Assembly (NCBI GenBank): GCA_045563025.1 | Contig: JBJKUS010000005.1 | Coordinates: forward strand, 34,718-98,717 | Source: Alphaproteobacteria bacterium | GTDB taxonomy: Bacteria > Pseudomonadota > Alphaproteobacteria > Methylaequorales > Methylaequoraceae | Length of the DNA: 64,000 bases | Direction of reading: 5' to 3' | Part shown: positions 17,602 to 54,549 of the stretch, piece after piece | How the letters are laid out: the number at the start of each line of letters is the position of its first letter | Numbering within the stretch: the first letter of the stretch is position 1 | Made by a program: the position numbers and the translations under genes | The notes under the pieces: generated by a model | Databases searched by the model: none | The model's input: the letters and a program-made list of their open reading frames with translations, nothing else | What the model was told of the DNA's origin: nothing

Positions 17602-17675
17602 GGTGCGGTGGCGGAGAGGCTACGCACCGGCCTGCAAAGCCGAGTACACCGGTTCGAATCCGGTCCGCACCTCCA
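17602..17675 (+). tRNA. tRNA-Cys (GCA)
   Basis: Cloverleaf read by hand: acceptor GGTGCGG/CCGCACC, anticodon stem CGGC/GCCG with loop CTGCAAA (anticodon GCA), T-arm GGTTCGAATCC, and an encoded 3' CCA. Confidence 0.9.
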
Positions 17676-17726
17676 AAAAATAAATGTTTTTACAAATTAA
17701 AAAATTAAACTATTATAGCTCTAATT

Positions 17727-17802
17727 TTCCGGCGTAGCTCAGTTGGTAGAGCAAGCGACTGTTAATCGCTGGGTCACAGGTTCGAGTCCTGTCGCCGGAG
17801 CC
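17727..17802 (+). tRNA. tRNA-Asn (GTT)
   Basis: Acceptor TCCGGCG/CGCCGGA, D-arm AGCTCAGTTGGTAGAGC, anticodon loop CTGTTAA (GTT), T-arm GGTTCGAGTCC, discriminator G, and an encoded CCA. Confidence 0.9.
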
Positions 17803-17840
17803 ATCATAATAATAAACGTTTATAAGTTATCGCAAAGTTT

Positions 17841-20385: not shown

Positions 20386-21387
20386 ATGAAAAAAGTTTTA
20401 TTAAAAAAAAATTTTAATGAATGTATAGGTAACACTCCTCTTATAAAACTTAACAGGGCCTCAGAATTATCAGGAAACAACATATACGGAAAATGTGAGT
20501 TCTTGAATCCTGGAGGATCAGTGAAAGATCGACCAGCACTTCAAATAATTAAAGATGCATTAAATAAAAAAGTTATAACTAAAGGTGGAACAATTGTCGA
20601 AGGTACAGCTGGAAACACAGGTATAGGCCTATGTCTCGTAGGAAATACATTTGGTATGAAATCAGAAATTGTAATGCCAAAAACTCAGAGTGAAGAAAAA
20701 AAAAAAATGCTTCAAATTTGTGGAGCAAACCTCCACTTAGTTGAGGCAGTTCCATACAAAAATCCAAAAAATTATGTTAGGTATTCAGAAACATTAGCCA
20801 AAAGTATAAAAAATGATAATGGTGTGCTTTGGGCGAATCAATTTGACAACCTTTCAAATAAAAAAGCCCATTATACTTCAACAGGCCCAGAAATATGGAG
20901 TCAACTTGAGGGTAAAGTCGATGGCTTTATATGCTCAGTAGGAACGGGTGGGACACTTGCTGGGACATCTGAATATCTTAAAGAAAAAAATAAGAATGTT
21001 ACTATTGGACTTGCAGACCCATTTGGGTCTGCAATGTATAATTATTTTAAGAATGGAATACTTAAGTCCGAGGGCGATTCAATTACTGAAGGAATTGGTC
21101 AAGGAAGGATTACCAAAAATCTAGAGAATATAAAAATTGATGAAAGCTTTCAGATCTCGGATTTTGATGCATTACACATTGTTTTTAAAATGATTGCAGA
21201 GGAAGGTTTGATATTAGGAGGTTCTTCTGGAATCAATGTTATGGGTGCTATAATGTTAGGTAAAAAATTAGGTAAAAATAAGAATATTGTGACCATATTA
21301 TGTGATTATGGAACAAAATACGAAAGTAAAATCTTCAATAAAAAATTTTTATTAGAAAAACAATTACCTATTCCTGAATGGTTATGA
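20386..21387 (+). CDS. cysteine synthase / cystathionine beta-synthase family PLP enzyme (fold type II)
   Basis: 333 aa; contains the PLP lysine motif (NPGGSVKDRPAL) and GTGGT/SSG loops. Confidence 0.85.
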   Translation: MKKVLLKKNFNECIGNTPLIKLNRASELSGNNIYGKCEFLNPGGSVKDRPALQIIKDALNKKVITKGGTIVEGTAGNTGIGLCLVGNTFGMKSEIVMPKTQSEEKKKMLQICGANLHLVEAVPYKNPKNYVRYSETLAKSIKNDNGVLWANQFDNLSNKKAHYTSTGPEIWSQLEGKVDGFICSVGTGGTLAGTSEYLKEKNKNVTIGLADPFGSAMYNYFKNGILKSEGDSITEGIGQGRITKNLENIKIDESFQISDFDALHIVFKMIAEEGLILGGSSGINVMGAIMLGKKLGKNKNIVTILCDYGTKYESKIFNKKFLLEKQLPIPEWL

Positions 21388-22202
21388 ACAAAGAAAAAAA
21401 TAACTTAATAAGCGCTTCAGAGCTTAAAAAAAAATTAAACAATAAAAAAATAAAAATCTTGGATGCTAGATGGTTTCTAGAAGATTCGCAAAAAGGGAAA
21501 AAACTATATGATAAACTGCATATTCCTCAAGCCATTTTTTTTGATATAAACAATCTTTCTGATAAAACCTCAGACCTTCCTCATATGCTTCCTAAGAAAG
21601 AGATTTTTAAAAAATACTTAGATGAAAATGGAATATCCAAAGAAAATGAAATTATAGTTTATGATCAAATCGGTTTTTTTTCCTCAGCAAGAGTATGGTT
21701 CATTTTTAAATATTTTAGTTTTGATAAAGTAAAGATTTTAAATGAAGGTTTTTTAATGTGGGAAAAAAAAAATTATCCAACAGACAATAAAATTCATAAG
21801 AAAGAAACTACAAATAATAAACTTACTGAAAATAAAGATTTACTGGCAAACAAGGCCCTCATTGAAAAAAATATTAAAAGTAAAAATATTTTAGTTATAG
21901 ATGCAAGATCTAAAAAAAGATTTCTTGGAGTTGAAAAAGAACCAAGAAAGAATTTAAAATCTGGAAATATTCCAGGCAGCATTAATATTCCCTACTCATT
22001 ATTATCCAAAAACGGTAAATTTTTAAATTATGGAGATCTTAGTAAAGTTTTTAATACTAAACTCAATTTAAAAAAACAAAAAATTATTTGTAGTTGTGGA
22101 TCTGGTATAACTGCTTGCAATTTAATTTTTGCTTTAGATATTTTAGGTTATAATAATGTTAAACTTTACGATGGTTCTTGGGCAGAATGGGGAAAAAAAT
22201 AA
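21378..22202 (+). CDS. sseA: 3-mercaptopyruvate/thiosulfate sulfurtransferase (tandem rhodanese)
   Basis: 274 aa with two rhodanese domains and the active-site loop CSCGSGITAC. Confidence 0.85.
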   Translation: MVMNKEKNNLISASELKKKLNNKKIKILDARWFLEDSQKGKKLYDKLHIPQAIFFDINNLSDKTSDLPHMLPKKEIFKKYLDENGISKENEIIVYDQIGFFSSARVWFIFKYFSFDKVKILNEGFLMWEKKNYPTDNKIHKKETTNNKLTENKDLLANKALIEKNIKSKNILVIDARSKKRFLGVEKEPRKNLKSGNIPGSINIPYSLLSKNGKFLNYGDLSKVFNTKLNLKKQKIICSCGSGITACNLIFALDILGYNNVKLYDGSWAEWGKK

Positions 22203-23344
22203 AAACACGAATTATCCACACTGGATCAGAACCGAAAAAACACTTTGGTTCAATAAGCGACCCAATCTATAGAAACTCAACTCTTGTTTTTGAATCCTAC
22301 AAGAGGTTTATCGAAGCAAAAAAAAATCGATTCATCCTTCCTTATTACGGAAGAATTAGCACTTACTCGACAAGAAGCTTTGAAAAAGTTATCACATCGT
22401 TATATAAATCAAGGCATACTATACTTACAAGCTCAGGTTTATCAGCCATAACAATTACTCTAAAAAGTCTTTTAAAGTGTAATGATCAAATATTAGTAAC
22501 TGAAAATTGTTATGAACCTGTTTTTAATTTTTCTAAACTTGAATTATCAAGGTTTGGAATTAAAACAACTTTCTATCCAAACAACTTTAAGAAACTAGAA
22601 AATTTAATATCAAAAGAAACTAAAATTTTATATGTTGAATCTCCTAGCTCTCTCAATTATGAAGTTGAGGACTTATTAAAAATTACAAAAATTGCTAAAA
22701 AAAATAAAATTATTACTGTCATTGATAATACTTGGTCAACTTTTTTAGGCTGTAATCCTCTTGATTATAATTTTGATATAGTTATTGAATCTGCAACAAA
22801 ATATCTGTCTGGTCATTCAGATAACTTCTTAGGTATAATTACAACAAATTCAGATAATCTCTGGAAAAAAATTAAAAAAACCGCGGTATTAAATGGAGAC
22901 TTCGTTTCTTCAGAAAGCTGTTTTAATGCTATGAAAGGTTTGAAAACACTTGAGGTTCGAATGAGTAAACATAGTGACAACGCAAAGAAGATTTTTGATT
23001 ATTTGAATTCAAAGAATTCTGTCGAGCAAATAATATATTTACCTGATCCAAAAAATAAAAATCATAAACTATGGAAAAAATATCATAAAATGAGTAATGG
23101 GCTGATTACTTTTTCATTAAAAAAAAAACGTAAAATTGAATACTTCTTAGACAAATTAAGTTTATTTAAGATAGGGTTTAGTTGGGGTGGTTATGAAAGT
23201 TTAATTTTACCGTTAAATAATTTAAAACCTTCAAAAAAATTGGCGACAAATTCGAATTATTGGTTTAGAATTCATATTGGTTTAGAGGATGTTAGTGATT
23301 TAATCAATGATTTAGAAACAGCAATTAAAAATTATGAAAAATAA
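22178..23344 (+). CDS. metC: cystathionine beta-lyase (Cys/Met metabolism PLP enzyme family)
   Basis: 388 aa; the PLP lysine context ESATKYLSGHSD matches the MetC/MetB family. Confidence 0.85.
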   Translation: MGRMGKKIKTRIIHTGSEPKKHFGSISDPIYRNSTLVFESYKRFIEAKKNRFILPYYGRISTYSTRSFEKVITSLYKSRHTILTSSGLSAITITLKSLLKCNDQILVTENCYEPVFNFSKLELSRFGIKTTFYPNNFKKLENLISKETKILYVESPSSLNYEVEDLLKITKIAKKNKIITVIDNTWSTFLGCNPLDYNFDIVIESATKYLSGHSDNFLGIITTNSDNLWKKIKKTAVLNGDFVSSESCFNAMKGLKTLEVRMSKHSDNAKKIFDYLNSKNSVEQIIYLPDPKNKNHKLWKKYHKMSNGLITFSLKKKRKIEYFLDKLSLFKIGFSWGGYESLILPLNNLKPSKKLATNSNYWFRIHIGLEDVSDLINDLETAIKNYEK

Positions 23345-23639
23345 AGAAAAATTTTTAATTTTCCAACCTGCAAAATCCGCAATGCAATCCGGTCTCTTTA
23401 ATACAAATAAATGGTGTCTTTCGAATTGTGAAATGCAAGAATCATATTTAAGCAGTAAGTTTTGTTGGAACGGAAGCTCAAACCCTGAAAAAAAAATAAA
23501 AATATTTTTCAAGACCCTTGATGAAGCAAAAAAATTTGCTGAAAAGAAAAATATAAGCTTTGAGATAGTTCTTCCAGGTAAAAGAAAAATTCTAAAAAAA
23601 TCTTATTCACAAAATTTCTTCAGAAAAAAAAATGCCTAA
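23334..23639 (+). CDS. NDUFS4-like ETC complex I subunit-family protein (PF04800-type)
   Basis: 101 aa. It aligns by eye to the eukaryotic NDUFS4 core (FQPAKSAMQSGLFNTNKW ... WNGSSNP ... FKTLDEAKKFAEKKNISFEIV ... KSYSQNF, versus NDUFS4 PARNNMQSGVNNTKKW ... GWASTADP ... KEDAVSFAEKNGWSYDI ... KSYGANF). Confidence 0.75.
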   Translation: MKNKEKFLIFQPAKSAMQSGLFNTNKWCLSNCEMQESYLSSKFCWNGSSNPEKKIKIFFKTLDEAKKFAEKKNISFEIVLPGKRKILKKSYSQNFFRKKNA

Positions 23640-24132
23640 AATTGATAAATTTTGTCCCCTTTGGTTATATAAAGTTGTAATATCAGTTACTGTATATGAT
23701 TACATTGTTAGAGACGTTGCAATTTTTGTATCTACAAAAAAATTTGAAAGTTTTTTCAGTAAATACTATAAAGATTTAACTGTGGATGAAATAGAAACCG
23801 GAGCAACTTCATTTATCCAATTTTTAGGAGAAGTAAAGACAAAAGATCCCTTTTTACTGCTAAATCATTTTACATACAATCTAGTGGAAGAAACAAAAGC
23901 TAAGTTAGGAAAGCTCTTCAAAAAAGATCCATATGAAGGTGACTCTGAAAAAGAATACAGCTCAGAAGTTGCTCTAAAAGACTTTAAAGTTTTTTCATTT
24001 TCATGTAGATCTGGTTTAACAAAAAAAGCTCCTGTCGGATGGGAGATAAGAAATGAGCAAGATTTAGGTATACTAAATAAAGCAATTGAAAAAGAGTTTT
24101 CAATTGATGATATGATAGATAGTGTACTTTAA
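23632..24132 (+). CDS. hypothetical protein
   Basis: 166 aa; no recognisable motif. It is translationally coupled on both sides (8 nt and 11 nt overlaps) within the same co-directional string. Confidence 0.4.
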   Translation: MPKIDKFCPLWLYKVVISVTVYDYIVRDVAIFVSTKKFESFFSKYYKDLTVDEIETGATSFIQFLGEVKTKDPFLLLNHFTYNLVEETKAKLGKLFKKDPYEGDSEKEYSSEVALKDFKVFSFSCRSGLTKKAPVGWEIRNEQDLGILNKAIEKEFSIDDMIDSVL

Positions 24133-24922
24133 TATGAGAAATCTATTTATATTTGTATTTTTGTTTAGTTTAATATTTGAAGCTAAAACTGCTGAAAGCG
24201 ACGATTTATTAATTAGCTCAATTAAGAACGAAAAAAGAAGTGAAAAAAATATTAAAAGAGACAAATACAGAAACCCTTTTGAGACACTAACATTTTTTGA
24301 AATTGATCGGAAAAAAAAAATTTTGGAAATTTCACCCGGCGGCGGTTATTATTCAGAGATAATTTCACATTATATGAAAAAAACAAATAACTTTTTTTCA
24401 ACCGAATATCTTGTCCCACCAGTTGAAGCTGTTAGAAAAGCTCAAGAAAGATATAACAAATTCTTTGAGGAAAATAAAAAAGATTTTGGTCAGATTAATA
24501 AGATATACTTTTTAAAAAATAATAAACTAGAATTTGAAGAAAAAAACTTTGACCTAGTTCTTACATTTAGAAACACTCATAACTGGCTAGGGTCAAATTC
24601 AGCAGGAAATGTATACCAAACTATTTATGATGTAATGAACAAAGGCGGGATTTTAGGTATAGTACAACATAGAGCTGATGAAAAATCAAAATTCAATTTT
24701 AAAAATGGGTATGTTAAAGAATCATTTCTTATAAGCTTTTTAGAAGATATTGGATTTAAACTTTTAGATAAATCCGATATCAATCAAAATACAAAGGATA
24801 AGAAAGACTATAAAAATGGAGTTTGGACACTTCCGCCAAGATTGGTTCTGGGTGATCTTGATAGACAAAAATATCTGGACATTGGTGAAAGTGATAGAAT
24901 GACATTAAAATTTATAAAATAA
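24122..24922 (+). CDS. putative class I SAM-dependent methyltransferase with an N-terminal signal peptide
   Basis: 266 aa with a cleavable-looking signal (MRNLFIFVFLFSLIFEAKTA) and a Rossmann motif I-like ILEISPGGGYYSEI, followed by an acidic residue (LVLTF). Confidence 0.5.
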   Translation: MYFNMRNLFIFVFLFSLIFEAKTAESDDLLISSIKNEKRSEKNIKRDKYRNPFETLTFFEIDRKKKILEISPGGGYYSEIISHYMKKTNNFFSTEYLVPPVEAVRKAQERYNKFFEENKKDFGQINKIYFLKNNKLEFEEKNFDLVLTFRNTHNWLGSNSAGNVYQTIYDVMNKGGILGIVQHRADEKSKFNFKNGYVKESFLISFLEDIGFKLLDKSDINQNTKDKKDYKNGVWTLPPRLVLGDLDRQKYLDIGESDRMTLKFIK

Positions 24923-24923
24923 A

Positions 24924-25715
24924 GTGATACACTTCATAGTTGCTACAACCTCTGAGGCAAGACCGTTAATCGACTTTTTTAAACTAAAAAAAAAAAATTC
25001 TATTTCTAATTTTGTTTTTTTTGATAATGATGAAATCTCTCTTACTATTAGTGGAATTGGAAAAATAAACGCAGCAATGAGCGTCACGCACACCTATTAT
25101 GAATTTAACAAAATTAAAAATAATGTTTGGGTAAACTTTGGGATTGCAGGACATATTAGTCATAGTATAGGAAAAATTTTTCTTATAAATAAAATAGTTG
25201 ATAAAGAAACTAATTATAAATATTTTCCTCACATAATCAAAAACTGCAAATTAGACCAAAAAAGCTGTATAACTTACAGTGAACAAAATTTTTTTTATAA
25301 TGATGATTTATCAGATATGGAAGCTAGTGGTTTTTTTATGGCTGCAGACAAATATTCAACTAAGGAACTGATTCATTCAATAAAAATTATTTCTGACAAT
25401 AAAGAAGAAAAAATTGATTTTTCTGATAAAAAAAAATTATATGACATAATTAAACCTAATGAAAAAATGATAACTTCATACATAGAAAATATATATAAAA
25501 TTTGGAAGAAGTTTTACTTCTACAAAAAAACAATTGATGAAAAAGTAAAAAAAGTTCTTCAAAATAAAAATCTTTCATTTTATCAAAAAAAAGAATTTGC
25601 AAAAGTTTTAGAATATTACTTTCTAAATAGTGAAAAAAATTCATCTAAAACATTAGATTTTTCAAATAATTTTGCTGAAAAAATAAAATTAATTAAACGA
25701 AATCTGAAAATATGA
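24924..25715 (+). CDS. nucleoside phosphorylase/nucleosidase family 1 protein (MTA/SAH-nucleosidase-like) with a C-terminal extension
   Basis: 263 aa. The N-terminal 150 aa align to the Pfs/MTAN fold: IVATTSEARPLI (cf. IGIIGAMEEE), LTISGIGKINAAMSV (cf. KSGIGKVAAA), VNFGIAGHI (cf. NTGSAGGL), SDMEASGFFMAA (cf. VEMEATAIAHV). Confidence 0.65.
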   Translation: MIHFIVATTSEARPLIDFFKLKKKNSISNFVFFDNDEISLTISGIGKINAAMSVTHTYYEFNKIKNNVWVNFGIAGHISHSIGKIFLINKIVDKETNYKYFPHIIKNCKLDQKSCITYSEQNFFYNDDLSDMEASGFFMAADKYSTKELIHSIKIISDNKEEKIDFSDKKKLYDIIKPNEKMITSYIENIYKIWKKFYFYKKTIDEKVKKVLQNKNLSFYQKKEFAKVLEYYFLNSEKNSSKTLDFSNNFAEKIKLIKRNLKI

Positions 25716-26680
25716 AATTTGAAAATATATATATAGAGGATGAAATTAAAAGTTTGAAAAAAACAAAAAGTATTTTGAGTAGAATTAAATATAAAAATAT
25801 AATTTTTTGCGACAAATACACTGAAATATTTAATCCAAAAAATCAAAACTTTCGAATCCAAAAAATAAATCCAAATATAATTTTAGCAAAAAAATATGGA
25901 AAGTTTATTTTAAAAACACCCCCAAAATTTAATATTGGATTCAAATACAACTATTATTTTTCACATATGCTTAATTGTGTTTATGATTGTAAATATTGTT
26001 TTTTACAAGGAATGTTTAATTCAGCTAATTTTTTAGTTTTTGTTAATTATGAGGATTTTTTTAAGGAGATTGACTGTATTTTAACAAAAAATCCAAATAA
26101 GAAAATTTGTTTCTTCTCCGGTTATGATTGTGATAGTTTGGCCTTGGAGAAAATAACGAATTTTCTTAATTCTTTTTTAACTTTTTTTGAGCAAAGAAAA
26201 AACGCATTCTTAGAAGTCAGAACCAAAAGTACTAATATAGAAGTTTTCAAAAAAATTAAACCAATTAATAATGTAATCATTGCATATAGTTTGAATCCAG
26301 AAGAAATTATTCAAAAGTATGAGCAAAAAACTCCAACTTTTGCAAAAAGACTTGAAAGTTTGCACTTATTACAGAGTCTAGGTTGGAGGGTTGGTATTAG
26401 ATTTGATCCAATTTTTGTTTCACATAATAATGTTAATATTTACAATCGCTTCGTAGAAAATATTTTTTTAAAGATAAATCCAAATACCTTGCATTCAGTA
26501 ACAATTGGTGAATTTAGAATGCCGAATAATTTTCTTAACAAGATACTCAAGATTAGAACTAATGACTCACTTGAATTTTTAGAGTTGCATAATAACAAAT
26601 TAAAGAAAAAAGAGAGTTATAGTTTATTTAAGAAAAAATTAAGAACCTTTGTAAGTGCAAGAAAAATTTATGAAAATTAA
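25712..26680 (+). CDS. spore photoproduct lyase-family radical SAM protein (SplB-like DNA repair lyase)
   Basis: 322 aa. The CxxxCxxC cluster sits in the SPL context NCVYDCKYCFLQ (cf. SplB C..HC.YCYLQ). The ATGA overlap with the upstream nucleosidase gene indicates coupling. Confidence 0.75.
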   Translation: MKFENIYIEDEIKSLKKTKSILSRIKYKNIIFCDKYTEIFNPKNQNFRIQKINPNIILAKKYGKFILKTPPKFNIGFKYNYYFSHMLNCVYDCKYCFLQGMFNSANFLVFVNYEDFFKEIDCILTKNPNKKICFFSGYDCDSLALEKITNFLNSFLTFFEQRKNAFLEVRTKSTNIEVFKKIKPINNVIIAYSLNPEEIIQKYEQKTPTFAKRLESLHLLQSLGWRVGIRFDPIFVSHNNVNIYNRFVENIFLKINPNTLHSVTIGEFRMPNNFLNKILKIRTNDSLEFLELHNNKLKKKESYSLFKKKLRTFVSARKIYEN

Positions 26681-27057
26681 AACTTCTTTTGTTTTACCTC
26701 AAACTTTTTACAGTTAAATGTTAAAGAGGTAATTTTTCCATCATCATGTTTCTCAAAATTTAATACGAGCTGTCCACTATATCTTCCAATAATACCTGAA
26801 ACATCACCATTGGAATCAGGATACAAAGGTATATCTTTTGCAGTCCACGAAATATTTGAATCAGTATTTTTGAATCTATCAGCAAAAAAACTTAATCCAC
26901 CTATGTCAATTTTTTTTTTATCTGTATCAATTATTAAGAAAACATCTTTTACATCAAGACTTCGTACATCTATATAATTATTTGTACATATTAGATTTAG
27001 TTCATTTGAAAAAGAAATTTTGGGAAGAAAAAGAAGAAATAATAACAGCCTGATCAT
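26677..27057 (-). CDS. secreted hypothetical protein
   Basis: 126 aa with a signal peptide (MIRLLLFLLFLPKISFS) and two Cys; no known motif. Its stop overlaps the SPL stop, in convergent orientation. Confidence 0.4.
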   Translation of the reverse strand: MIRLLLFLLFLPKISFSNELNLICTNNYIDVRSLDVKDVFLIIDTDKKKIDIGGLSFFADRFKNTDSNISWTAKDIPLYPDSNGDVSGIIGRYSGQLVLNFEKHDDGKITSLTFNCKKFEVKQKKF

Positions 27058-27216: not shown

Positions 27217-27951
27217 ATGTGGAAAAAGAAAGTTTACATAAGTGATTCCGCTCAGCCATTCAGATTAAATAGAACAAAAATTGATTTATTTTTTGATTGC
27301 GAACGTTGTTTTGTCCTTGATCAAAAATTTGGTATAAAAAGACCTTTTGGGACTCCTTTGGTAATGAATAATAAAATAGTAAATACGCTTAAGGATGAAT
27401 TAGAGATTTGCAGAGAAAAAAAACAAATTCATCCTCAAGTTTTGGAGAATAATCTGAATTATATTCCCAATAACTTTGAGCTTCTGAATGATTGGAAAAA
27501 TCCATTTAAGGGTGTAAAATATACTCACAAGAAAACTAATTTTTTACTTAATGGGACTATTGATGATGTTTGGATAAATAAAACTACAAAAAAAAACTAC
27601 TGTTTAATTATTAAAAGTACTTCAAAAAAAGAACAACTGTCATATGAGCAAATATGGTCTGGATATTGGAGGCAATTATCTTTTTATACATATCTTCTGG
27701 AAAAAAACTCAATTGAAATGTCAAAAACTGGAATTCTTGTATTTATAAAAACTTTTGACAATTCTGAAAAATTCTCCAAAAGTTTATCATTTAATTTAAG
27801 TATCTTTGAAAAAATATTAGATCTTGATTGGATTGAACCAACACTGTTAAACATACATAAGATTTTAAATAGTAACGAAATTCCAAAAAATTCAAACTAT
27901 TGTAAATATTGCAAATATTATTTTAACATTAAAAACAAAATTAATGAATAA
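27217..27951 (+). CDS. putative PD-(D/E)XK-type nuclease, Cas4/RecB-like, with four Cys (possible Fe-S or Zn site)
   Basis: 244 aa. A CERC pair lies at residues 28-31 and CKYC at 229-232. A QxxxY motif (RQLSFY) follows a candidate active-site Asp (GTIDDVW). The gene is coupled to the ligase by an 8 nt overlap. Confidence 0.45.
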   Translation: MWKKKVYISDSAQPFRLNRTKIDLFFDCERCFVLDQKFGIKRPFGTPLVMNNKIVNTLKDELEICREKKQIHPQVLENNLNYIPNNFELLNDWKNPFKGVKYTHKKTNFLLNGTIDDVWINKTTKKNYCLIIKSTSKKEQLSYEQIWSGYWRQLSFYTYLLEKNSIEMSKTGILVFIKTFDNSEKFSKSLSFNLSIFEKILDLDWIEPTLLNIHKILNSNEIPKNSNYCKYCKYYFNIKNKINE

Positions 27952-29263
27952 TGCAGAGATTATAAAACTTATTGAATCATCGAATTCAAGACTTTTTAAA
28001 GAAAATATAATTCTTGAGCAAATGAAATTGCAAAATAATATACTTTTCTCTGGTTTGTCATTAGCTTACAACAAACTACTGACCTTTGGTGTTAAGCAGC
28101 TTCCAATCTCTGATAATGATGGCACTGGAATAAATTGGTTAGAATTTAAGGAATTATGTGACCAATTAATTAAAAGAAAGCTGACCGGTCATGCTGCACG
28201 AGATAGAATCATTGAATTAAAAGATAAATCTGGGAAAGATGAATGGAATTTTTTTTATAAAAGAATTTTGCAAAAGGATATGAGATGTGGACTTTCGGAA
28301 AAAACGATTAATAATGTTGCAAAAAAAAATAATTTTGAAAATTACACAATTCCTGTTTTTTCATGTCAATTAGCGCAGGATTGTGAACTTCACAAAAAAA
28401 AGTTAAGCGGAAGAAAAATCTTAGAAGTAAAACTTGACGGAGTCAGGGCAATAACTGTTGTATACCCTAATGGTAAAATTGATATTTTCAGTAGAAATGG
28501 TAAAGAATTAAATAATTTCGACCATCTTAAAAATGAAATTAATAGATTACTAGACATAAATCTAGTTTCAAAACCTATTATTTTTGATGGTGAAATCGTG
28601 AGTGAAGACTTCCAATCATTAATGAAACAGATCCATAGAAAGAATTCATTGCAAAACAAAGATGCAAAACTTTTTATTTTTGATTTTTTACCACTTGAGG
28701 ATTTTAAAAATGGAATTTACAAAAAAACTTTTGAAGATAGAAAAAATCTTTTAAAAAAATTTTACGAAAAGTTATTTTCAGAAAGTAAACTTATCAGACT
28801 TATGGATTCATTAAGTGTAGATCTTGATACTGAAAATGGGAAAGATGAATTTAAAAAATTTAATAGTGAATCTATCATAAATGGCTATGAGGGTATAATG
28901 ATCAAAGACCCAAGCTCTTTTTATGAATGTAAAAGATCTACAACTTGGTTAAAATCAAAACCATTTATAGAAGTTTCACTAGAAGTAAAAGACTATGAAG
29001 AAGGTACCGGAAGAAATCAAGGTAAATTAGGAGCTATCATTGCTGAAGGAACTGATAACAATAAATATTTCAAAACTAATGTAGGGTCAGGTTTTTCTGA
29101 TATTCAAAGAGAAAACTTTTGGATAAAAAGAGATGAACTTATCGGGCAAATAATAGAAATTCGCGCAGACTCTGTAAGTAAGGCTCAAGACGGAAAATAT
29201 TGGAGTTTGAGATTCCCTCGTTTTAAAACGTTTAGGGGTTTTGAAAAAAAAGAAAAATTATAG
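27944..29263 (+). CDS. ATP-dependent DNA ligase
   Basis: 439 aa with nucleotidyltransferase motifs I (EVKLDGVRA), III (FDGEIV), IV (EGIMIKD) and V (WLKSKP), plus an OB-fold C-terminus. No signal peptide is present. Confidence 0.85.
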   Translation: MNNAEIIKLIESSNSRLFKENIILEQMKLQNNILFSGLSLAYNKLLTFGVKQLPISDNDGTGINWLEFKELCDQLIKRKLTGHAARDRIIELKDKSGKDEWNFFYKRILQKDMRCGLSEKTINNVAKKNNFENYTIPVFSCQLAQDCELHKKKLSGRKILEVKLDGVRAITVVYPNGKIDIFSRNGKELNNFDHLKNEINRLLDINLVSKPIIFDGEIVSEDFQSLMKQIHRKNSLQNKDAKLFIFDFLPLEDFKNGIYKKTFEDRKNLLKKFYEKLFSESKLIRLMDSLSVDLDTENGKDEFKKFNSESIINGYEGIMIKDPSSFYECKRSTTWLKSKPFIEVSLEVKDYEEGTGRNQGKLGAIIAEGTDNNKYFKTNVGSGFSDIQRENFWIKRDELIGQIIEIRADSVSKAQDGKYWSLRFPRFKTFRGFEKKEKL

Positions 29264-54472: not shown

Positions 54473-54549
54473 TGGTAGCGGAGGAGGGACTTGAACCCCC
54501 GACACGCGGATTATGATTCCGCTGCTCTAACCACCTGAGCTACTCCGCC
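54473..54549 (-). tRNA. tRNA with CAT anticodon (elongator tRNA-Met or lysidine-modified tRNA-Ile2)
   Basis: The minus strand reads GGCGGAGTAGCTCAGGTGGTTAGAGCAGCGGAATCATAATCCGCGTGTCGGGGGTTCAAGTCCCTCCTCCGCTACCA. The anticodon stem is GCGGA/TCCGC with loop ATCATAA. It is not an initiator (no three-GC anticodon stem). CCA is encoded. Confidence 0.85.

Follow-up and report, generated by a model that had tools for sequence, protein, structure and literature searches.

Why is a relative of spore photoproduct lyase (SPL) encoded immediately behind a nucleosidase-like gene in an alphaproteobacterium of the family Methylaequoraceae? The two genes lie in a stretch of 64,000 nucleotides that was analysed as a whole and is called the window here (assembly GCA_045563025.1, contig JBJKUS010000005.1, positions 34,718 to 98,717 of the forward strand). 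They encode a nucleosidase-like protein of 263 aa, referred to as NUC, and a radical S-adenosylmethionine (SAM) protein of 322 aa. The original prediction was that the two form a UV-lesion repair module. A different answer is proposed here. The pair is best read, with a probability of about 0.42, as the conserved core of a metabolic cassette in which NUC would strip the adenine off an adenosyl-bearing compound made by the radical SAM enzyme, and not as a DNA-repair unit.

Both open reading frames (ORFs) are genuine genes and not chance ORFs, because 74-88 public contigs encode proteins identical to theirs, the marine metagenome-assembled genome (MAG) 'alpha proteobacterium MED-G10' among them, and because the best homologues of the two proteins have E-values of 1e-207 and 1e-163. 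They lie on the plus strand, and their lengths, their positions and the ATGA overlap that joins them are as originally predicted. The GTG start of NUC yields MIHFIVA, which is the consensus N-terminus of its family. Scans for transcription signals add little. The window has a GC content of 28.9%, and a promoter scan of such DNA (29% GC) is uninformative, with 48 sites against 37.5 +/- 6.7 expected. A terminator scan of the window found one terminator-like site, on the wrong strand.

Is the radical SAM protein a spore photoproduct lyase? In its broad features it resembles one. Its overall fold is of the SPL type, it matches the broad SPL superfamily in Pfam (PF20903) with 62.4 bits against a gathering threshold of 27, and the motif that first suggested the assignment, CVYDCKYCFLQ, is present at residues 89-99. 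However, it scores only 85.4 bits against the SPL equivalog model TIGR04070, for which the cutoff is 400, and 32 bits against TIGR03886, for which it is 437. Identity to the SPL protein SplB is only 15%. In other words, the claim of SPL membership stands for the superfamily and the fold, but not for the equivalog.

The individual residues lead to the same distinction. The functional residues of SPL, taken from its structural analysis (PMC3467042), were mapped through a profile alignment onto 202 members of the radical SAM family. Cys89, Cys93 and Cys96 are invariant in all 202, as are Tyr95 and Gln99. The SAM-binding residues Lys174, Ser195 and Arg273 of SPL are retained as K172 (202/202), S193 (197/202) and R269 (200/202). 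The residues characteristic of repair are another matter. The hydrogen donor of SPL, Cys140, corresponds to Tyr138, which is invariant (202/202), and single-sequence and profile alignments agree on this. There is no strictly conserved fourth cysteine among the 202 members, either as SPL Cys140 or as the upstream cysteine of clostridial enzymes. The family does have a Cys140 of its own (93.6%, otherwise Ser, Gly, Thr or Ala), which may be spatially equivalent to the SPL hydrogen donor, and a Cys33 (95.5%, otherwise Ile or Val). Tyr98, strictly conserved in SPL, aligns with position 97, which is Phe in 179 of the 202 sequences (89%), the window protein included, and Tyr in the other 23. Finally, the lesion-flipping beta-hairpin of SPL (Arg304/Tyr305) and Lys309 have no counterpart. 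The profile alignment stops at SPL residue 299, and the structure model predicts a confident helix and no hairpin for residues 296-311; its predicted local distance difference test score (pLDDT) climbs from 68 for residues 291-300 to 91-96 for residues 301-320.

Because the hydrogen-donor Cys, the fourth Cys, Tyr98, the hairpin and Lys309 all fail, the radical SAM protein appears, from its sequence and model, to be a homologue with the SPL fold but without what SPL specifically uses to repair spore photoproduct and regenerate SAM. It has N-terminal invariant motifs of its own (Y7, E9, N41, Q45, Q50, K51, Y82 and H85), and its family is very highly conserved across phyla, with a mean column identity of 55%. 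The isoelectric point (pI) varies within the family between 5.6 and 11.3, and the members are not consistently basic. This range is uninformative, and pI was dropped as a proxy of DNA binding.

The second partner, NUC, had been assigned a purine nucleoside phosphorylase (PNP) or methylthioadenosine nucleosidase (MTAN) fold in its first 150 residues, followed by an unassigned extension of about 100 aa. Pfam gives this only partial backing. The PNP_UDP_1 match reaches 24.0 bits, just under the threshold of 25.1, and covers only residues 5-101. The NCBIfam matches ('nucleosidase', futalosine hydrolase and MTAN) are weak and each far under its cutoff (NF004079, 25 against 169; TIGR01704, 20 against 74; futalosine hydrolase, 30 against 125). 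Because the PNP_UDP_1 match alone is below threshold, the fold was assigned from a structure model and the family profile. The AlphaFold2 model of NUC (pLDDT 92.6) has a compact alpha/beta core that runs to about residue 165, somewhat beyond the predicted 150, and a Foldseek search of the PDB with this model returns MTANs or futalosine hydrolases as all of its top 44 matches (E ~1e-12). The fold was therefore right and its extent was not.

What of the active site? Nine columns are invariant in an alignment of 39 diverse NUC members: E11, N71, G73, G76, M132, E133, K154, S157 and D158. A profile search of the PDB lines invariant residues up with MTAN Glu12, Met173/Glu174, Arg193 and Ser196/Asp197, so the catalytic Glu and Asp expected of an MTAN relative are present as E11, E133 and D158. 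The water-positioning Arg193 of MTAN is K154 throughout the 39 members. The extension also proves to be real. It spans residues 166-263 and is now confidently modelled as a three-helix domain (helices at 169-212, 219-239 and 250-260). An exhaustive HMMER search with this domain alone matched 1,061 cluster representatives, and in the 150 best matches it is always C-terminal and always in the same architecture. Given the invariant catalytic residues, the MTAN fold and a domain confined to the family, NUC is most probably a catalytically intact, adenine-releasing relative of MTAN with a private appendage.

How general is the pairing? The radical SAM family is found in at least 598 genomes that represent species, and its metagenomic clusters number in the thousands. 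From the genomes 80 loci were kept, which with three fetched earlier makes 83, and neighbours were called by hidden Markov model (HMM) searches. A metagenome scan was made from the NUC side, with a profile built from a 12-sequence subset of the NUC alignment, and gave 58 evaluable loci. In all, 172 genome and metagenome loci were examined. A gene for this dedicated PNP-family nucleosidase lies directly upstream of the radical SAM gene, on the same strand, at 33 of the 83 genome loci. The low overall figure is due to the Methylococcales. Outside this order the pairing is found at 32 of 33 loci, and the sole exception has just 494 nt of upstream sequence. Seen from the other side, the radical SAM gene immediately follows NUC at 44 of the 58 metagenome loci. 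The paired loci outside the Methylococcales come from marine Alphaproteobacteria, Legionellales, Thiotrichales, Arenicellales and Granulosicoccaceae, and also from a Solemya symbiont, Opitutaceae (Verrucomicrobiota) and Acidobacteriota. At one Nitrospiria locus both genes are present but about 4 kb apart.

The junction is tight. It measures -11 to +6 nt at 32 of the 33 adjacent genome loci, 22 of which overlap, and the commonest form is the 4-nt ATGA-type overlap (12 loci). NUC is thus predicted to be translationally coupled to the radical SAM gene in at least four phyla. An apparent 630 aa fusion of the two proteins (L016) was rejected as an ORF-calling artefact, since its two matches lie in different reading frames. 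In the Methylococcales the radical SAM gene stands without NUC in its vicinity, yet these bacteria do encode NUC (788 matches); there it is a conserved orphan whose surroundings vary. L035 and L061 are exceptions, with the two genes adjacent or about 2 kb apart. One further locus is informative in a different way. In L005 (8812-12841) an insertion sequence (IS) interrupts the SPL-like gene, whose two halves are separated by HTH_Tnp_1 and rve_3 genes, whereas in L004 (8812-9828), another assembly of the same 3.1 Mb genome, it is intact. This natural knockout suggests that the SPL-like gene is dispensable under some conditions.

Further genes recur beside the pair. The commonest partner is a classical short-chain dehydrogenase/reductase (SDR) of about 238 aa, whose gene begins at the radical SAM stop codon at 56 of the 83 loci. 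These downstream SDRs form one orthologous group. Divergent upstream SDRs at eight loci share about 24% identity with the downstream ones; they belong to another subfamily and were not counted as the same partner. A soluble family 2 glycosyltransferase (GT2) is encoded directly upstream of NUC at about 18 genome and about 17 metagenome loci (about 35 overall). GT2-NUC pairs also occur with no adjacent radical SAM gene (L091, L146 and L172). The nearest named relatives of this GT2 include glycosyltransferases that accompany radical SAM enzymes (MftF). The full unit, GT2-NUC-radical SAM-SDR, is found in Alphaproteobacteria, Gammaproteobacteria and Nitrospiria. Its flanks are unrelated between loci, and no further widely recurring partner emerged.

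The clade of the window has a reduced form of this unit. No SDR or GT2 of the family types is encoded within the 64 kb window, and NUC is preceded by c8, an exported protein with a class I methyltransferase fold. Its assignment comes from weak matches to Methyltransf_11 and, in PDB profile searches, to SAM methyltransferases. It is unusual for an exported protein to have a SAM-type fold. c8 lies directly upstream of NUC at about 35 metagenome and 8 genome loci of this clade, and it also occurs near the cassette in unrelated arrangements (GT2-NUC-SPL-SDR-c8 in L130; Methylococcales L031, L034, L056 and L063). It is possibly a third member of the unit in the window clade, although this is suggestive and not established. 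The c8 family (alignment A4) is very well conserved, and has a mean column identity of 56%, the motifs RDKYRNPxETLxFF, TFRNxHNW, GVWTLPP and IGESDRMTLKF, and no curated model. The window c8 contains no cysteine at all and was therefore not accepted as an arsenite methyltransferase. Nor was c9, which stands beside c8 in Methylococcales, taken as a partner; it is DsbB and its position is probably local synteny.

Several other neighbours are restricted to particular lineages. In one sublineage a protein of about 151 aa resembling dual-specificity phosphatases (DSP) and DUF442, with weak matches to PF22741 and TIGR01244, is encoded between GT2 and NUC (L019, L024, L053, L066, L150, L170, L171, L134 and L141), and it may be an additional member of the cassette. 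An ORF that by eye resembles adenine phosphoribosyltransferase (APRT) is found about 2-3 kb upstream of NUC at five loci of a Thiotrichales/Legionellales-like group (L019, L021, L024, L053 and L150). Such a neighbour fits the release of adenine by NUC. A ThiC-like ORF lies convergently downstream of the cassette at seven loci. Perhaps both are clade synteny. In Methyloprofundus and Methylomonas an ORF that by eye resembles Nth (endonuclease III) is convergent with the radical SAM-SDR pair, downstream of it (L038, L041, L047, L061 and L068). This would be a DNA-repair neighbour, but a lineage-specific one on the opposite strand.

What might such a set of enzymes do? The radical SAM enzyme would consume SAM stoichiometrically and yield an adenosyl-bearing product. 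The simplest route would be addition of the 5'-deoxyadenosyl radical to a substrate, as in HpnH, MqnE and ArsS. NUC would then hydrolyse adenine off the adduct, as HpnG and MqnB do, and so leave a 5-deoxyribosyl appendage. Where present, the SDR would reduce or oxidise the sugar of this appendage and the GT2 would glycosylate or transfer it. In the window clade a reduced version would operate with an exported methyltransferase-fold protein, the nucleosidase and the radical SAM enzyme. There are precedents for this order of events. In the making of the hopanoid side chain, HpnH adenosylates the substrate, the PNP homologue HpnG strips the adenine, the ribose is reduced and the glycosyltransferase HpnI acts (PMC13459092). 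ArsS adenosylates dimethylarsenite en route to arsenosugars (PMC13598754). An on-pathway role for NUC is favoured because the set of enzymes matches the HpnH/HpnG/HpnI logic and the ArsS precedent. One observation that does not fit is that profile comparison finds no specific similarity of the radical SAM protein to HpnH, MqnE or ArsS. A bolder version holds that the SPL fold was co-opted for chemistry on something other than DNA, as a further class of radical SAM enzymes that adenosylate their substrates, the fourth after those three and structurally unrelated to them, and that with NUC (and SDR and GT2) it builds a 5-deoxyribosyl or polyol appendage on a metabolite or envelope lipid of marine alphaproteobacteria, methanotrophs and other Gram-negative bacteria. 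This is unlikely, at perhaps one chance in four.

Could NUC simply be a scavenger? The radical SAM enzyme would then carry out an ordinary hydrogen abstraction on a substrate other than DNA, and a dedicated NUC, perhaps docked through its C-terminal helical domain, would hydrolyse the inhibitory by-product 5'-deoxyadenosine. The proposal deserves weight. 5'-Deoxyadenosine is an established substrate of MTAN (MtnN/Pfs), the MTAN fold and catalytic set are intact in NUC, and a family-private C-terminal domain fits docking to a partner. The loss of the Cys/Tyr relay of SPL suggests that SAM is consumed and not regenerated, and the Methylococcales radical SAM-SDR pair without an adjacent nucleosidase gene is what would be expected if NUC were an accessory helper. 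However, clearing 5'-deoxyadenosine would leave the extra partners unexplained, among them the recurrent GT2 directly upstream of NUC, which is found there even without the radical SAM gene. The dedicated nucleosidase HpnG, which is also linked to a radical SAM enzyme, acts on the pathway, and so does MqnB. The Methylococcales, moreover, keep NUC as a conserved orphan gene. Because the hosts are expected to carry other radical SAM enzymes, a scavenger tied to just one of them is unparsimonious. Such a role is somewhat unlikely, though it is the main rival and deserves more credence than either of the proposals that involve nucleic acid.

One of these is that the SPL-fold enzyme acts on a pyrimidine of tRNA, rRNA or DNA and that the adduct is built up into a hypermodified base by NUC, SDR and GT2. 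To our knowledge SPL is the sole characterised member of its fold, and what it does is to flip out pyrimidines in nucleic acid and act on them (PMC3467042). The 55% column identity across phyla is what a universal, invariant substrate would lead one to expect, and indirect support comes from Curtobacterium, in which UVC induces an SPL-family protein that formed no part of the present comparison. We take that protein to be a TIGR03886 member, which by its score the window protein is not. Yet the radical SAM model has no hairpin or other recognisable nucleic-acid-binding element, the family is not consistently basic, no tRNA- or rRNA-modification genes recur nearby, c8 is exported and no known modification matches. 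A hypermodified base is accordingly a long shot. Still less probable is the repair originally predicted, in which an SPL-type enzyme would mend a UV-induced pyrimidine lesion in DNA and NUC would clear 5'-deoxyadenosine. The equivalog score, the SPL-specific residues and the hairpin all speak against it, and a nucleosidase, a glycosyltransferase and a dehydrogenase, like the exported methyltransferase-like protein, have no DNA-repair role and would be out of place in lesion repair. DNA-repair genes that do occur nearby are clade-specific synteny, beyond an opposite-strand gene or convergent with the cassette. Spore photoproduct forms mainly in dehydrated spore DNA bound by small acid-soluble proteins. 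The suggested relevance to a UV-exposed organism fares no better. Among the hosts are symbionts of dark habitats and bacteria of deep water, such as a gill symbiont of Solemya, a symbiont of a deep-sea sponge, Methyloprofundus and a bacterium from deep Lake Baikal, so the family's distribution does not track exposure to UV. An anti-phage defence system was also considered and set aside. NUC, the radical SAM protein, c8 and the flanking small ORFs have zero matches to PADLOC defence models, and the genes lie in conserved core synteny.

Table 1. Coordinates in the window of the gene pair, its predicted elements and the preceding gene.
Feature	Position	Strand	Basis or remark
NUC, nucleosidase-like, 263 aa	24924..25715	+	ORF list; GTG start
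NUC predicted MTAN-fold core, residues 1-165	24924-25418	+	structure model
NUC predicted family-private three-helix C-terminal domain, residues 166-263	25419-25712	+	structure model
Radical SAM protein of the SPL fold, 322 aa; forms a subfamily separate from true spore photoproduct lyase	25712..26680	+	ATG start
CxxxCxxC [4Fe-4S]/SAM cluster motif, Cys89/Cys93/Cys96 in CVYDCKYCFLQ	25976..25999	+	sequence
ATGA overlap, NUC stop / radical SAM start (predicted translational coupling)	25712..25715	+	sequence
c8, exported protein of 266 aa with a signal peptide and a class I methyltransferase fold	24122..24922	+	ends 1 nt before NUC start

The surroundings of the pair in the window can be described briefly (Table 1 gives the pair itself). 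Upstream, at 20386-23639, a tightly packed string of overlapping same-strand genes leads into c22, c8, NUC and the radical SAM gene, with no terminator or clear promoter between the string and these four. It encodes a cysteine synthase, a protein of 274 aa resembling rhodanese-type sulfurtransferases by eye, a cystathionine beta-lyase-like pyridoxal phosphate enzyme and an NDUFS4-like protein. Downstream, the 3' end of a minus-strand ORF (26677-27057, 126 aa) is convergent with the radical SAM stop codon and overlaps it by 4 nt. This ORF has a hydrophobic N-terminus and no family match, and is conserved in the clade (cluster c21). Beyond it lie a Cas4/PD-(D/E)XK-like nuclease of 244 aa (27217-27951) and, overlapping at its start, an ATP-dependent DNA ligase of 439 aa with DNA_ligase_A_M and OB domains (27944-29263). 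Their synteny is kept across the clade (L007-L013 and L081), and they look like a small unit for DNA-end processing and ligation. Elsewhere in the window there are tandem tRNA-Cys(GCA) and tRNA-Asn(GTT) genes on the plus strand (17602-17803) and tRNA-Met(CAT) on the minus strand (54473-54549). An Rfam scan of the window found no further family above threshold beyond these three tRNAs.

What makes this family worth attention is partly its annotation. In public records its members are labelled 'DNA photolyase' or 'spore photoproduct lyase', and NUC is a 'hypothetical protein'. Such labels invite false inferences of UV repair for marine bacteria and methanotrophs. In the library searched, no paper treats the family or the pairing, ties SPL homologues to a nucleosidase, SAR11 or methanotrophs, or employs the term 'SPL-like'. 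Here, then, folds and a pathway logic that are already known come together in a combination that is widespread, misannotated and undescribed, and even a genome of only 28.9% GC still retains the pair. If the metabolic reading is true, the SPL fold would have a second activity, one with which a nucleosidase has co-evolved, and radical SAM chemistry would be the broader for it. A sugar-derived metabolite or a modification of the envelope, new in either case, could also come to light in bacteria of ecological importance. The cassette is a testable system: it has between two and four soluble enzymes, methanotroph hosts that can be cultivated and, in the IS insertion, a natural knockout.

How does the cassette compare with systems that are already understood? 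From SplB of Geobacillus thermodenitrificans (PDB 4FHC/4FHD) the radical SAM protein is set apart by sequence (15% identity; 85 bits against the 400-bit cutoff of TIGR04070), by hosts, which are non-sporulating Gram-negative bacteria, and by the coupling of its gene to nucleosidase, SDR and GT2 genes. The arsenosugar pathway of ArsM and ArsS offers a likeness of steps, namely radical SAM adenosylation, loss of adenine and a GT2-like step, and the arsenosugar glycosyltransferase model TIGR04283 is among the best named matches of the GT2. One locus even brings the two together. In a Nitrospiria MAG (L091, 2580-5090) a fusion protein of 836 aa, which joins a radical SAM/SPASM domain to an arsenite-methyltransferase-like domain, is encoded directly upstream of GT2-NUC. 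However, the GT2 scores 76-81 bits against the TIGR04283 cutoff of 182, the methyltransferase-like domain of the fusion scores 235 bits against the cutoff of 263 for PRK11873, and the radical SAM half is not ArsS. A tblastn search with the fusion returned no similar sequence from the window or from the other 171 loci, where ArsS and ArsM are likewise absent. Membership of the arsenosugar pathway was therefore rejected, and the likeness was retained as an analogy.

NUC itself resembles MtnN/Pfs and MqnB in its PNP/UDP-type fold and in its catalytic residue equivalents, all of which are invariant, and like them it would be expected to free adenine from 5'-substituted adenosines. It differs in being genetically coupled to one particular radical SAM enzyme, in having the extra three-helix domain of 98 aa that is private to its family, and in its compact core of about 165 aa, compared with about 230 aa in MTANs. 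Another parallel is the hopanoid system of HpnH, HpnG and HpnI, although the likeness is confined to the logic. The radical SAM protein has the SPL fold and is not HpnH-like, NUC matches no HpnG model and the window clade lacks SDR and GT2. With no match to the HpnG or HpnH models, membership of the hopanoid pathway itself was not accepted. What the fuller versions of the cassette share with it is the combination of four enzyme types, namely a radical SAM enzyme, a PNP-family nucleosidase, an enzyme for a reductase step and a GT2.

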